Shown in pieces: positions 6,367 to 10,590 of a DNA stretch of 64,000 nucleotides (its first letter is position 1; each line of letters starts with the position of its first letter). The notes beneath the pieces are model-generated. The model did not search any database and had not been told where the DNA came from. It saw only the letters and a list, made by a program, of their open reading frames with translations. The DNA lies in the IMG/VR virus record IMGVR_UViG_3300037400_006004, positions 32,001 through 96,000 of that record; one strand, given 5' to 3'. The DNA is from a virus (Duplodnaviria > Caudoviricetes). Made by a program: the position numbers and the translations under genes.

Positions 6367-8028
6367 TTAAAATGTTCCTTTACAAATAAACTGATTTGAA
6401 GTTACAAGAATACCAATAATACTAATTACTGCCTTAAGAATTTCTGTTTCTGTCTTAAGAGAATTAATAATATCAGTATTTTTATCATTCTCAAAATTCT
6501 TTGTTTTTAAGTTATATATACATCTTTCATCTACACATTTATTAATTATTTCATTTGCTTGTTCTTCTGTTTTTCCTGCATTTAAAAGTACATACTTATA
6601 ACAATCTTTAAAAGAATTACTTACAAGATTAGTAAGAGTATTTAAAAGTTCATAATTAGAAGAAGCTCTATCATAAACAGTATGCTTAATGGTCTTTGGA
6701 ATTGTAAGATTACCACCAGATACATATCCAGTTTCTAATGCTGCCTTACAAGCAAAAATACTGTCTTCAATAAGATACTTACGATTATTCTTTTCAAGTT
6801 CAGTATCTCCACCAACATAATACTTTACAATAGAAGAATTAAGATTACCTCGTCTAGTTTCAAGTTTAAAAATTCTATCTTCAAATGTATCATCATGAAG
6901 TTCTTTAAACTTATTAATCTCTTCAGTAATATGATCTACTCTATCTTTAAGTTCCTGATCGGAACATCTTCTACCAATAACTTTAGTTGTCTTATTAGTG
7001 ATTGCAATTTCATCACAAGAACCTAGCATTTTATAAAAATTCTTTTTAAAGTCTTCTTCTTTATCAAAAGTCTTATCATAAATAGTACTCTTAGTAAATA
7101 ATGCAATATCCTTAAAAATTTCTTCCTGATTCTTATTAGCGAAATTAAAATCTACTAAACAAATCTGAAGATTAGGATTCTGCTTCTTATTAATAATCCA
7201 ACAAGAAACAAACTCTACAGAAAAACTTCTAGCAATAATAACTACAGGCTTAGTCTGCTGAGATACAAGATTACCAATTACATCTACAATATAATTAAGA
7301 TCAGTAGAATCAAGTCTATCATTACACATAAAAATAAAAGGTTCTTTAACTTTAAACTCAGGCTTATTTCTATTATTGGAAAAATCTTCTGCAATCATAC
7401 CAGTTGCAAATTCAAGACCATTAAGATACTCATATGTATCATTATTATCTTTAGAATTCTCTAAATAAATAAAGCCTTCTCTACCAATCTTTTTATAAAT
7501 ATCATAAATATTCTTACCAACAATTGGATCATTATTATTAGAAACTTCTGCAATCTTTCTAATTACATCAAAATTCTCTTCAGTAATAGGAGTTGCAAAT
7601 TCTTTAATATCTTGATTAATATATTCTTCAATCTGTTTTAAACCATCAAAAATTTCCTTTGGAGCATAGTCTTTTAATTCAGTAGCAAGAGCATTGTTAA
7701 TATTATTAAATAAACTTTCTGCAATAACTACTGAAGAAGTACTACCATCACCAACTGTTTGTACTAAATTAAAGGAAATTTTCTTAATAATTTCATAAAT
7801 AGTTCTAGCTACAGGACTTTCAAATCTAAGTGATGACAAAATAGTATAACCGTCCTTTGTAGCAACATGTCCATTAATCTTATCTTCAATAATAGTCGAA
7901 GATCCATAATATCCTAAAGACTTTCTTAAACTATCTGCAATAATTTTTAAAGTCTTTTCAGATAATTTCTTATAATCTTCTTCACAAACTATATTTGAAG
8001 CTTCGCTATTAATAAGTGTGTTATCCAT
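6367..8028 (-). CDS. groEL: Phage GroEL-like chaperonin
   Basis: SLGYYGS, TKDGYTI, VGDGSTSS, IEDSIFACKAA, GYVSGG motifs; 553 aa; no GGM tail. Confidence 0.92.
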   Translation of the reverse strand: MDNTLINSEASNIVCEEDYKKLSEKTLKIIADSLRKSLGYYGSSTIIEDKINGHVATKDGYTILSSLRFESPVARTIYEIIKKISFNLVQTVGDGSTSSVVIAESLFNNINNALATELKDYAPKEIFDGLKQIEEYINQDIKEFATPITEENFDVIRKIAEVSNNNDPIVGKNIYDIYKKIGREGFIYLENSKDNNDTYEYLNGLEFATGMIAEDFSNNRNKPEFKVKEPFIFMCNDRLDSTDLNYIVDVIGNLVSQQTKPVVIIARSFSVEFVSCWIINKKQNPNLQICLVDFNFANKNQEEIFKDIALFTKSTIYDKTFDKEEDFKKNFYKMLGSCDEIAITNKTTKVIGRRCSDQELKDRVDHITEEINKFKELHDDTFEDRIFKLETRRGNLNSSIVKYYVGGDTELEKNNRKYLIEDSIFACKAALETGYVSGGNLTIPKTIKHTVYDRASSNYELLNTLTNLVSNSFKDCYKYVLLNAGKTEEQANEIINKCVDERCIYNLKTKNFENDKNTDIINSLKTETEILKAVISIIGILVTSNQFICKGTF

Positions 8029-8033
8029 ATAAG

Positions 8034-8423
8034 TTACTCCTCTATTAAATCAACTTTTACTTTTAAAGTTTGATCTTTAGAAATAAAAGTATATATTTTT
8101 TTATCTTTTGTGATATCAAAAACACCATCTAAACCATATTTCTTTATTATAGAATCGATATCCTTTGGTTTACTAAAAACAAAGGATATCTTTCTAAAAT
8201 TACGTATATTACTATCTTTTGAATTACAGTCAAAACCTTCTTTAACTTTATATTTAACATTTTCTAAATTCAAAATATTAACTAAAGCATTAAATTGATA
8301 TCCATGTTTTTTATCTAACGATTCTTTAAAATTTTCATATGCTATATCAGCTAATTGGTCAATTTCACTTTTTACTAAATGGTCAGATGGTTGCATAAGA
8401 TCATTATAATAAAAATAAATCAT
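8034..8423 (-). CDS. Hypothetical protein
   Basis: 129-aa ORF inside the operon. Confidence 0.65.
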   Translation of the reverse strand: MIYFYYNDLMQPSDHLVKSEIDQLADIAYENFKESLDKKHGYQFNALVNILNLENVKYKVKEGFDCNSKDSNIRNFRKISFVFSKPKDIDSIIKKYGLDGVFDITKDKKIYTFISKDQTLKVKVDLIEE

Positions 8424-8462
8424 TTAAATCAACCAACTTTCTATATAATATATGCTCAGCCA

Positions 8463-8705
8463 TTAGCTTCCTTTTTGTAGTTTCTTTCTTTCATTCTCTA
8501 GTTTTTCTTCTCTTACTTCTTTCATAGCTAAAAGTAAAGAATATTCCATATCCATCATTTCTTGAATGGATATTTTACCTTCGAATAAATCAACTAAATA
8601 TAATAAGAAGCTAGCACTATTTTTATATTTTTCTTTTATTCTTTCATTACCAATAATATCTTTACTTATTGGCTGAGCATTAGACGAAAAAGTACATTTT
8701 CCATA
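8463..8705 (-). CDS. Start-less -1 frame extension of the 8666..9928 chaperone (G/GT-like frameshift product)
   Basis: 80 open codons ...SFLLYLVDLFEGKISIQEMMDMEYSLLLAMKEVREEKLENE...; no ATG/GTG/TTG before the MMDM; overlaps the 3' end of 8666..9928 in the -1 frame. Confidence 0.65.
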   Translation of the reverse strand, partial: YGKCTFSSNAQPISKDIIGNERIKEKYKNSASFLLYLVDLFEGKISIQEMMDMEYSLLLAMKEVREEKLENERKKLQKGS

Positions 8706-9928
8706 TCAACTGGCATAGCACCTAAGTCTTTCTTACAAGAAGGACATTTAAAATTAGGAATTCTATATTCTGTCTTATATTTTTCAGTCCATTCATCAAT
8801 AGCTTTTGCAAGCTGCTTTGTATCATTAATAGATAACTCTTTAAGAACTCTAATTATCTGATCCTGAGAAGTTACAGGATAATAAATAGGAGATCTCTTT
8901 TCAAGAGTTTCTGGTACGTTAAGAAGAAATATATCTTTAATAAATAATAATGTAGCAAGATCATCAGACATACTTTCAAGCTGATCTGCTGGAGTAGACT
9001 TTAGAAGATCAAGCTGATCTTTAAGAGAAGGAATTCTAATATCAATAACTGTCTTAGATTGATCTAGACAAATTCTCTGATGTTCAGCAACAAGAGAAGC
9101 CTTCTTAACTTTTTCAGGTGTATCAGCAGTTCTAGCTACTTCATCAAGTCTCTTAAAGATTTCATCATCTTTACTAAATACTAAACTATCATTTGGAATA
9201 TCTTGTGAAAATTCATGTTGACAGTGAATACATTTAAAATCAAACTTAGTAGATCCTGGGAATGTCTGCATATGTAATCCATAGAATAAGCTCTGTAAAT
9301 CAAAGAATGAAGTACATTCACAGAATGTATCAAAACTAATAGCTCCAATACTTGTAGCCTGAAGTCTACTATGAATAATCTGATACATCTTAAGAGTTGT
9401 ATGATATTCATCCATTGTAGAATTAGTAATAGCATCAATATCATTATATTTAAGAGCTTCCATATAAGCAACATAACAGCTCTGTGGAAGAGTAACCTGA
9501 AAAGTAGGTTTACTATTAAATACGAGATCAAGATTGTTATGTTTTTCAAGACTGTTAAGACTGTCTGAAATAACAAGATTATTTAAATCAATATTCATAG
9601 TAGGAAGAAGATCATTAATCTGTACCTTCATATCATTAACAATCTCATGCTTTGCACTCATAAATAAAGGATTAGGATTAGCCTTTTCTTTCTGAGTGAG
9701 AACTTCTTTTGCAGAAAGACTAGTAGAATTCTTTCTCTTAGTAGGAGTATTTCCTCCAGATTTCTTAGTGGTCTTCTTTTCACCATTATCATCTACATTA
9801 GCATTAAAACTAAGACCACCATTAACTTCATTTCTAGCACGTTCCATAGCTGCAAGCATTTCTGGATTAGCTCCAGTAGGATCGGGTGCTATATTGTCAT
9901 TAGGTTCAAAAGTAACTTTTTTAGCCAT
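8666..9928 (-). CDS. Baseplate hub/tail assembly chaperone (T4 gp26-like)
   Basis: Two CxxC pairs (FKCIHC, FKCPSC), RIPSLKD; next to the gp25-like gene. Confidence 0.65.
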   Translation of the reverse strand: MAKKVTFEPNDNIAPDPTGANPEMLAAMERARNEVNGGLSFNANVDDNGEKKTTKKSGGNTPTKRKNSTSLSAKEVLTQKEKANPNPLFMSAKHEIVNDMKVQINDLLPTMNIDLNNLVISDSLNSLEKHNNLDLVFNSKPTFQVTLPQSCYVAYMEALKYNDIDAITNSTMDEYHTTLKMYQIIHSRLQATSIGAISFDTFCECTSFFDLQSLFYGLHMQTFPGSTKFDFKCIHCQHEFSQDIPNDSLVFSKDDEIFKRLDEVARTADTPEKVKKASLVAEHQRICLDQSKTVIDIRIPSLKDQLDLLKSTPADQLESMSDDLATLLFIKDIFLLNVPETLEKRSPIYYPVTSQDQIIRVLKELSINDTKQLAKAIDEWTEKYKTEYRIPNFKCPSCKKDLGAMPVDMENVLFRLMLSQ

Positions 9929-9954: not shown

Positions 9955-10590
9955 TTAAAGATCCATCTGAGATATAACTTTTCTATTAGATGTATCTCCA
10001 GTAAAAAACAGATTAATCTTATATTCTTGTGAATTTCCTTTTTCATTAGTATCAAAAATTGTAAAGAAAATAGCAAGAGTATTATAAGCACCATTGGCAC
10101 TTCTTAAAAACTCTACTTGATGCTTTGTATTTATATTAGATTGAATGATTGATTTATTTAGCCATTTTTCCATTTGAGTATTTATACTTTCTTCTAACTC
10201 ATATTTAGTAGTATTATTTGCAAATTCAAATAAATAATCTTCAATACCTACGCCAAAATCAGGATTATTAGGATAAGTGCCTTTTTTAGTAATTAAAATA
10301 TGTTGAATAACTCTAGCTACTGCTTCTTTACCAGTAGGCTGCTTTATTTTTTTAAATTCTGTTATATTTAAAGAAACATCACGAAATTCAGTAGGTGTAT
10401 TATTTTTAAGAGCTGCTTCTTTACCAGCCTTAACTAATTGCTCTATAATTCGATTAGCTTCATCAATAGGGTTATTCTTATAAATCTCATACAAATCACT
10501 TACATTTAATTCTCCGCCTTTTCTAGCTCTATTTATAGCATCAATATAACTCTGATCATAAGTTCCACTTTCTCTTTTATCATTAGGCAT
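9955..10590 (-). CDS. Baseplate wedge/sheath initiator (T4 gp25-like) with N-terminal extension
   Basis: ILITKKGTYPNNPDFGVGIEDYLFE is the gp25 signature. Confidence 0.8.
   Translation of the reverse strand: MPNDKRESGTYDQSYIDAINRARKGGELNVSDLYEIYKNNPIDEANRIIEQLVKAGKEAALKNNTPTEFRDVSLNITEFKKIKQPTGKEAVARVIQHILITKKGTYPNNPDFGVGIEDYLFEFANNTTKYELEESINTQMEKWLNKSIIQSNINTKHQVEFLRSANGAYNTLAIFFTIFDTNEKGNSQEYKINLFFTGDTSNRKVISQMDL

Follow-up and report, generated by a model that had tools for sequence, protein, structure and literature searches.

Near the 3' end of a gene for a putative baseplate hub assembly chaperone, the DNA analysed here, a 64,000-nucleotide stretch of a jumbo phage genome referred to below as the window, carries what is probably a programmed -1 frameshift signal. 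The shift would give a 488-residue fusion protein, and a long-range RNA helix that begins shortly after the slip site would stimulate it. Confidence in these two elements together is good, and it is higher still for the fusion product considered apart from any role of the helix. Judging from comparison of related loci, the probable frameshift is a conserved and previously unannotated feature of this gp26/gp51-like chaperone gene, and a search of the literature found no prior description of it. The coordinates are collected in Table 1.

Table 1. Features of the candidate frameshift locus and its neighbours, with positions in the window
Feature	Positions	Strand	Evidence
Upstream neighbour, gp25-like baseplate wedge / sheath initiator	9955..10590	-	PF04965 E = 4e-7, phrog_261
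Zero-frame gene P0002, 420 aa, putative gp26/gp51-like baseplate hub assembly chaperone homologue	8666..9928	-	phrog_18873 E = 5e-87; fold matches
Candidate slip site, zero-frame CUU UUU (Leu413-Phe414); core tetramer U_UUU at 8687-8690	8687..8692	-	NTT TTY in register in 34/34 distinct loci
Spacer CGUCUA, 6 nt, from the UUU codon to the helix	8681..8686	-	read from the sequence; 5-6 nt across clades
Predicted helix 5' arm AUGCUCAGCCA, in the overlap of both frames, just before the zero-frame stop	8670..8680	-	exact complement, fold, covariation
Predicted -1 frame extension, 74 codons; S/N-rich linker, then conserved helical domain with core LLYLxDLFEGK-S; stop at 8463-8465	8466..8687	-	conserved in all loci
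Predicted helix 3' arm UGGCUGAGCAU, directly after the -1 stop	8452..8462	-	compensatory changes
Downstream neighbours, 129-aa ORF (8034-8423) and phage GroEL (6367-8028)	6367..8423	-	phrog_5725, PF00118

The window has a GC content of about 26% (24-31%), and its kin are the jumbo phages AR9, PBS1, S6 and phiR1-37. On the minus strand, the gp25-like wedge gene is followed by the 420-residue gene, an ORF without a usable start, the 129-residue ORF and the phage GroEL gene. In tblastn searches, the 420-residue gene (33-37% identity) and the small ORF are found in the Bacillus phages AR9, PBS1 and BpSp and in Staphylococcus jumbo phages (S6, SA1, AH12 and others), while the large gene also matches Listeria LPJP1 and, at 28%, Yersinia phiR1-37. 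The gp25-like neighbour is present in the same synteny in AR9, AH12, BpSp, SA1 and S6, and an ORF of the 129-residue type (about 110-130 residues) and GroEL are kept as neighbours in all fetched loci. The comparative set comprises about 40 related loci with 28-93% protein identity to the window, the metagenomic relatives ranging from 93% to 30%. Querying the viral contigs with the single protein gave no close relative, but alignment-based scans did recover relatives. One locus, L037 (2100-2200; contig Ga0326513_10051848), is the same as L036/L038 until 8 codons past the slip site and then diverges, lacking the small ORF; the contig is either an assembly chimera or a deletion variant that occurs naturally.

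By fold, the product of the zero-frame gene would be a distant relative of the T4 hub assembly chaperones gp26 and gp51. Its AF2 model (pLDDT 77) matches at least 12 BFVD models named as T4-like baseplate hub assembly protein, chaperone or hub subunit (E 1e-8 to 1e-4, TMt 0.5-0.7), as well as 500-690-residue proteins of phiKZ-like phages. Four cysteines are invariant (C233, C236, C395 and C398) and form two CxxC motifs. In T4, gp26 and gp51 are listed as hub assembly chaperones, and the virion is without gp51 (PMC3004832). Both T4 proteins belong to PF12322. A Pfam scan of P0002 gave no match, PF12322 and the tail assembly chaperone (TAC) families included; the homologue P0029 reaches PF12322 at E = 4e-4 (20.5 bits, under the gathering cut-off of 24.5) and P0039 at E = 0.27. 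In hhalign comparisons of P0002 with T4 gp26 and gp51, with the alignment against the gp51 alignment included, the CxxC motif alone matches. The earlier note had referred to tail assembly chaperones, which commonly make G/GT products by -1 frameshifting. The gene does not appear to be a classical member of this class: it does not lie between tube and tape-measure genes, and the best PDB fold matches are indeed tail assembly chaperones but weak ones (HK97 2ob9, E = 0.68, Z 3.3; YqbN 3klu, Z 4.7). A fold relative of the chaperone, 539 residues long, is also present in the phiKZ-like Erwinia phage Special G, where an 86-residue protein with a nearby accession has a weakly extension-like fold (E = 2.3; BFVD matches A0A191ZCG4 and A0A191ZCG7). 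The two-product arrangement may extend to the Chimalliviridae.

The small ORF was already noticed as an open -1 frame that runs from a TGA at 8706-8708 for 80 codons to 8463 without a usable start in its first half, and this description is correct; the frame lies on the minus strand, ends with a TAA at 8463-8465 and has its first ATG/GTG/TTG at codon 51. The 3' end of the 420-residue ORF reads GAT ATG GAA AAT GTA CTT TTT CGT CTA ATG CTC AGC CAA TAA, with the zero-frame stop at 8666-8668. Because -1 stops inside the large gene occur about every five codons (density 0.21 per codon) and the longest open -1 run there is 19 codons, the run of 80 codons is not an effect of composition. In every locus, the overlap of the -1 ORF with the end of the large gene is 34 nt or longer, and the -1 ORF extends 197-272 nt beyond the zero-frame stop.

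Two slippery sequences had been proposed in this overlap, CTT TTT C at 8686-8692 (Leu 8690-8692, Phe 8687-8689) and G GAA AAT at 8696-8702. The latter is discarded as a slip candidate, being unconserved in the relatives and containing no Z_ZZN or X_XXZ_ZZN motif in register. At the former, the junction codons of 34 distinct loci are CTT (31), GTT (2) or ATT (1), followed by TTT, or by TTC in three of the CTT loci; U_UUY is in register also in L049-L055 (GTT TTT) and L056 (CTT TTT). At 11 other conserved Leu columns of the same genes, taken as a control, 29-53% of the codons end in T. No locus has a -1 stop between the motif and the zero-frame stop. For 18 divergent representatives, with a -1 stop density of 0.10-0.22 per codon, the joint chance of this is about 10^-14, a figure that serves as an order-of-magnitude argument, the lineages being related. 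The position of the shift can also be bounded. The nearest upstream -1 stop lies two codons before the motif in SA1/S6 (L017/L018), and in L012 the zero-frame stop follows six codons after it. U_UUY is the only invariant shifty sequence in the interval set by these loci, and the upstream open stretch of only two codons therefore pins the shift to this site.

Other modes of slipping at the same place are less suitable. A +1 shift at UUU_C was rejected, since the +1 frame of the window stops after two codons. The codon after UUU differs between clades (CGU/CGA, CAU, AAG, ACU, AUU and others), which makes a hungry-codon mechanism unlikely. The minimal motif for a bacterial -1 shift is Z_ZZN (PMC5009743). 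Among the 16 tetramers in E. coli, U_UUC comes second and U_UUU third; on their own, both show hardly any activity, and a 3' pseudoknot raises them to 0.26-5.6% (PMC4066793). A low-percentage shift that depends on a stimulator is therefore to be expected. The site is a tetramer only, not a heptamer, and the P-site tRNA-Leu cannot re-pair; the efficiency may consequently be very low.

The predicted fusion comprises 414 + 74 = 488 residues, in agreement with the product of about 490 residues that had been proposed. The extension forms a domain of about 70 residues that consists of an S/G/N-rich linker, a variable basic stretch, the core A..LLYLLDLFEGK(I/L)S..E(I/M)..M(D/E)..LL and a K/E-rich helix. 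AF2 models it as four helices, with a pLDDT of 82 overall; the core exceeds 90, and the eight residues at the start are at about 50. A profile search of 1.84 billion proteins found 177 relatives, while Pfam and PHROG gave no match and a BFVD fold search none below E = 0.5. The core precedes the first ATG/GTG/TTG in 15 of 16 members of the window's clade, and it does so in AR9, BpSp, the Staphylococcus phages and phiR1-37 as well. For the stretch that separates the zero-frame stop from the first ATG, the three -1 codon positions have column entropies of 0.85/0.53/1.00, and the same periodicity is found after the ATG. Genes of the window have a strong Shine-Dalgarno (SD) sequence 6-10 nt before an ATG; the small ORF has neither such an SD nor such a start. 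The invariant in-register U_UUY, the -1 frame that is always open and a conserved coding domain placed before any start together argue for the -1 shift at CUUUUU, as had been supposed.

The same features bear on how the ORF has been annotated. Since the first canonical start comes only after the core, this place in the relatives is either skipped by gene callers, with a gap of some 240 nt, or called as a 32-residue stub. Where small ORFs have been deposited, they start at a CTG or at an internal ATG that removes the conserved core: L001:2495 (AR9 g230, given a CTG start), L002:2657 (AH12), L016:2094 (BpSp gp285) and L017:2088 (SA1). phiR1-37 g242 and S6_1160 are annotated likewise. These deposited ORFs of AR9, AH12, BpSp, SA1, phiR1-37 and S6 are probably mis-annotated parts of a recoded gene.

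A word-based search for longer proteins found no in-frame fused homologue. Three long profile matches, P0046, P0165 and P0107, were rejected as proof of a fusion, since each is a 1-nt indel variant in a single contig; these indels may be sequencing errors. P0165 differs at a G-run, and seven IMG/VR genomes retain two frames; P0107 is GC-rich. P0046 (NCBI PTU25751.1, partial) comes from a Bacillus subtilis draft contig of 1867 nt with a PBS1/AR9-like phage fragment, in which a 1-nt difference five codons before the slip site places the extension in frame with the chaperone body. P0101 (187 aa, 6 contigs) is a stand-alone protein with two copies of an extension-like domain and its own Met start. 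The virion proteome of BpSp lists neither product, which is uninformative for a non-structural chaperone.

The second element of the proposed signal is the helix. Structures 3' of a bacterial -1 motif are sought 5-9 nt downstream of it, and the helix of the window has this spacing. As originally described, ATGCTCAGCCA (8670-8680) starts 5 nt past CUUUUUC, and its perfect complement (8452-8462) follows the -1 stop, so that a loop of 207 nt is enclosed. The two 11-mers are the only exact pair of this kind in the 64 kb, and the pairing extends to 14 nt at 93% (one mismatch). The stem is present in both the MFE and the centroid fold of 8430-8700 (z = -2.4; 2 of 200 shuffles equally stable). An Rfam scan of 8300-8800 gave no relevant match. 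Across the 16 loci of the window's clade, the register of the 5' arm is constant, 5-6 nt after UUU, and the 3' arm stays within -2 to about +23 nt of the end of the -1 stop despite the variable C-terminal tail, with loops of 197-260 nt.

Covariation of the two arms in related phages had been named as a check, and compensatory changes are found in 15-16 members of the window's clade. Position 9 of the helix is G-C in seven loci and A-U in eight, and position 10 occurs as C-G, U-A, G-C and A-U. L011, L012 and L026 carry at least three double changes each; the clade also contains G-U intermediates and three C-A mismatches. In a MAFFT alignment, 88.9% of the cells are paired, compared with 20-34% for slid partners. 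The covariation score of 0.218 (against 0.134) is equalled by 0 of 500 shuffles, and four pairs change on both sides, a number that 2 of 500 shuffles reach. These tool counts are conservative, because L026 and L027 have their 3' arm out of place in the alignment; a script was used to bring the arms back into register. On this evidence, the long-range helix is taken to be a real, conserved structure in the window's clade. A further conserved element, TATAGAAAGTTGGTTGA, occupies 8424-8451 (minus strand) just upstream of the ATG of the 129-residue gene and has the same position in L003-L028. A conserved G/U-rich element, AGTTGGTTGA, lies at the ribosome-binding site (RBS) of that gene, and the G/U-rich part of TATAGAAAGTTGGTTGA can form wobble pairs with every variant of the 5' arm. 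The element might thus compete as a second partner of the 5' arm and link translation of the chaperone to the RBS of the next gene.

Other clades have a helix at the same place with a different partner. In AR9-like phages, the 5' segment UUCUCCAGAU (and variants) pairs with AUCUGGAGAA inside the -1 ORF, 118-157 nt away; L015 has a compensatory change there from G-C to A-U, and the partner is shifted in L030 and L031. The distance is 62 nt in the Staphylococcus phages, where CGCUGCAU pairs with AUGCAGCG. The 18-nt segment that begins 3 nt past the slip codon was also compared with windows of the same length in the same gene. Its pairing with the 300 nt downstream is better than that of 95% of these windows in 27 of 32 loci, and these outliers span the AR9, Staphylococcus and other clades, with the 3' partners located elsewhere. 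The idea that the helix encloses the whole shifted ORF is thus borne out in the window's clade, whereas in the AR9-like and Staphylococcus clades the 3' partner is nearer and inside the -1 ORF. The spacing of the 5' arm is constant in every clade, while the 3' partner lies 60 to 260 nt away. A stimulator would be expected to show just this combination, a 5' arm anchored beside the slip site and a 3' partner of variable position, and we infer that the helix stimulates slipping.

A feedback of terminating ribosomes on shifting had also been suggested; it is possible but not supported. Unfolding is not specific to shifted ribosomes, because all ribosomes open the 5' arm before they reach the zero-frame stop. 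Only in the window's clade would the 3' arm be covered by a ribosome that terminates in the -1 frame. The abutment of the 3' arm on the -1 stop is suggestive of feedback, and a need for non-coding sequence explains this abutment equally well. As a stimulator of slipping, an 11-bp helix that closes a loop of 207 nt is a weak barrier unless it is stabilised by other contacts.

The proposed mechanism can be outlined as follows. A minority of ribosomes would slip back by one nucleotide at Phe414 of the hub-assembly-chaperone gene, where tRNA-Phe would re-pair from UUU to the overlapping UUU within C-UUUUU. The slip would be promoted by the RNA helix that starts 6 nt after the UUU codon and whose 3' strand, in the window's clade, lies about 200 nt off. 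Shifted ribosomes would read 74 more codons in the -1 frame, giving a 488-residue product made up of the chaperone minus its last six residues, a flexible Ser/Asn linker and a small four-helix domain. Unshifted ribosomes would stop six codons on and release the 420-residue form. The efficiency is presumed to be low, of the order of 1%, by analogy with the published values for U_UUU and U_UUC. The long form may have a role in hub or tail assembly beside the short form, as its minor partner, comparable to that of lambda gpGT beside gpG. A wider proposal is tentative and rather doubtful. According to it, the whole jumbo lineage (AR9/PBS1, S6, phiR1-37 and uncultured kin) would set the ratio of short to long chaperone by a -1 shift with a movable helix; in the window's clade, terminating ribosomes would transiently unfold the helix and so self-limit shifting, and the two forms would be the one-gene equivalent of T4 gp26/gp51.

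The main alternative to a fusion is that the small -1 ORF is a separate gene, translated from a near-cognate start (AUU, AUA or CUG) or by termination-reinitiation, with the helix serving coupling or mRNA stability. The CTG start annotated for AR9 g230 points in this direction. Many members of the window's clade have an ATT or ATA past the zero-frame stop. In L013, L014, L033, L011 and L028, and in the small ORFs P0040, P0042 and P0056, an ATG stands a few codons ahead of the core, so that independent initiation is possible in these lineages, and L028 has a possible AAGGG SD; nearly all matches to the extension profile are also called as stand-alone ORFs of 40-100 residues. However, the invariant in-register U_UUY and the open -1 frame before the zero-frame stop (the 10^-14 estimate above) would then be left unexplained. 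The ORF also lacks an SD in a genome whose SDs are strong, L010 and L025 have neither ATH nor a canonical start before the core, and the Met of L013/L014/L033 occupies a position that is L, F or I elsewhere, so that it looks like a hydrophobic core residue. A separate gene is accordingly considered unlikely. It is quite improbable, and a little more so, that the frameshift is real and the helix is not its stimulator but an RNA processing or stability element or a regulator of the 129-residue gene, with slipping left to the motif alone or to another signal. The entropic weakness of 11 bp over a 207-nt loop is consistent with such a role, and so are the intergenic position of the 3' arm, 30 nt before the start of the next gene, and the wobble pairing of the RBS element of that gene with the 5' arm. 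Against it stands the spacing of 5-6 nt, common to all clades although the distance to the 3' partner varies between 60 and 260 nt, together with the finding that U_UUU tetramers are barely shifty without a stimulator (PMC4066793).

The extension could also be brought into frame at the level of transcription, if slippage on the T5 run gave mRNAs that had gained one U or lost two. Two points would count for this explanation: the run is a homopolymer, and AR9-type phages presumably combine unusual multisubunit RNA polymerases with uracil-containing DNA. Yet the run is only 4-5 nt long (4 in AH12, L036 and L038), whereas known transcriptional slippage needs about 7-9 nt or more. Slippage of this kind would, in addition, place no selection on a motif in codon register or on an RNA helix 6 nt downstream, and it is regarded as very unlikely. 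That the open frame and the inverted repeat are functionless products of chance or decay has a negligible probability: the AT-richness of the genome is all that speaks for it, and conservation over about 40 loci, coding periodicity, covariation of the helix and a domain modelled with confidence by AF2 speak against it. The programmed -1 frameshift with a stimulatory helix is thus the preferred reading.

Among known systems, the nearest parallel to this reading is lambda gpG/gpGT; a conserved -1 frameshift of tail-assembly chaperones was reportedly described by Xu, Hendrix and Duda in 2004 (cited in PMC9024508). As is proposed for the gene of the window, that of lambda is a non-structural tail-assembly gene, in which -1 slippage near the 3' end gives a major short form and a minor form extended at the C-terminus, and both systems are conserved by position rather than by sequence. 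The differences are considerable. The window protein has 420 residues and is gp26/gp51-like in its predicted fold, with weak TAC fold matches (Z 3.3-4.7); its gene follows a gp25-like wedge gene instead of lying between tube and tape-measure genes; and the motif is a tetramer rather than a heptamer, the extension has only 74 residues and the 3' stimulator would be long-range. T4 offers a second comparison, since gp26, gp26' and gp51 have a fold class in common with the window protein and T4 gene 26 adjoins gene 25. T4 gp26 ends at a point equivalent to the end of P0002 (CPxCGK..., then a short helix), and gp51 is about 45 residues longer. According to its annotation, T4 gene 26 also gives two products, by internal initiation. 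Unlike the window, T4 uses two paralogous genes and an internal start without a frameshift, and in sequence P0002 does not reach the threshold of PF12322. When the extension is compared with gp51 by hhalign, the best local match falls in the gp51 tail (residues 223-232) but is not significant (E = 0.079, probability 0.7%); the likeness of the two is treated as an analogy only. In the gp51 homologues P0192-P0283, precomputed annotation assigns the C-terminal tail to a second family, PF28602.

Long-range stimulation is known from the plant RNA viruses BYDV, RCNMV and PEMV2, in which a slip-adjacent sequence pairs with a distant downstream segment, as in the window (PMC4737148, PMC5009743). Those stimulators act on eukaryotic ribosomes, reach over kilobases to the 3' UTR and modify a local stem-loop (PMC4737148, PMC5009743), whereas the type seen here is bacterial and consists of a plain helix of 10-14 bp over 60-260 nt, with the 3' arm at the end of the transframe ORF or inside it. 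Bacterial -1 slippage with a 3' RNA structure, as in the window, is represented by IS3/IS911 and dnaX, and Z_ZZN tetramers work with the IS3 pseudoknot (PMC4066793). The signals of IS3/IS911 and dnaX differ in having heptamers of the A_AAG type and hairpins or pseudoknots of local extent, in many cases together with an SD-like element upstream; the window shows none of these.

The reading proposed here has several consequences. For annotation, AR9 g230/g231, PBS1 121/122, S6_1150/1160, BpSp gp285/286 and phiR1-37 g241/g242 are probably one recoded gene each. For the study of bacterial frameshifting, the related phages offer a natural series for the effect of stimulator distance, in which the same slip site and 5' arm are combined with 3' partners 60 to 260 nt away. 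If it is true, the frameshift would be a second, independent case among tailed phages in which short and long forms of an assembly chaperone are made by frameshifting, here for the baseplate hub of jumbo phages with contractile tails. Two such cases would suggest that tail assembly in general needs an extended chaperone as a fixed minor fraction.
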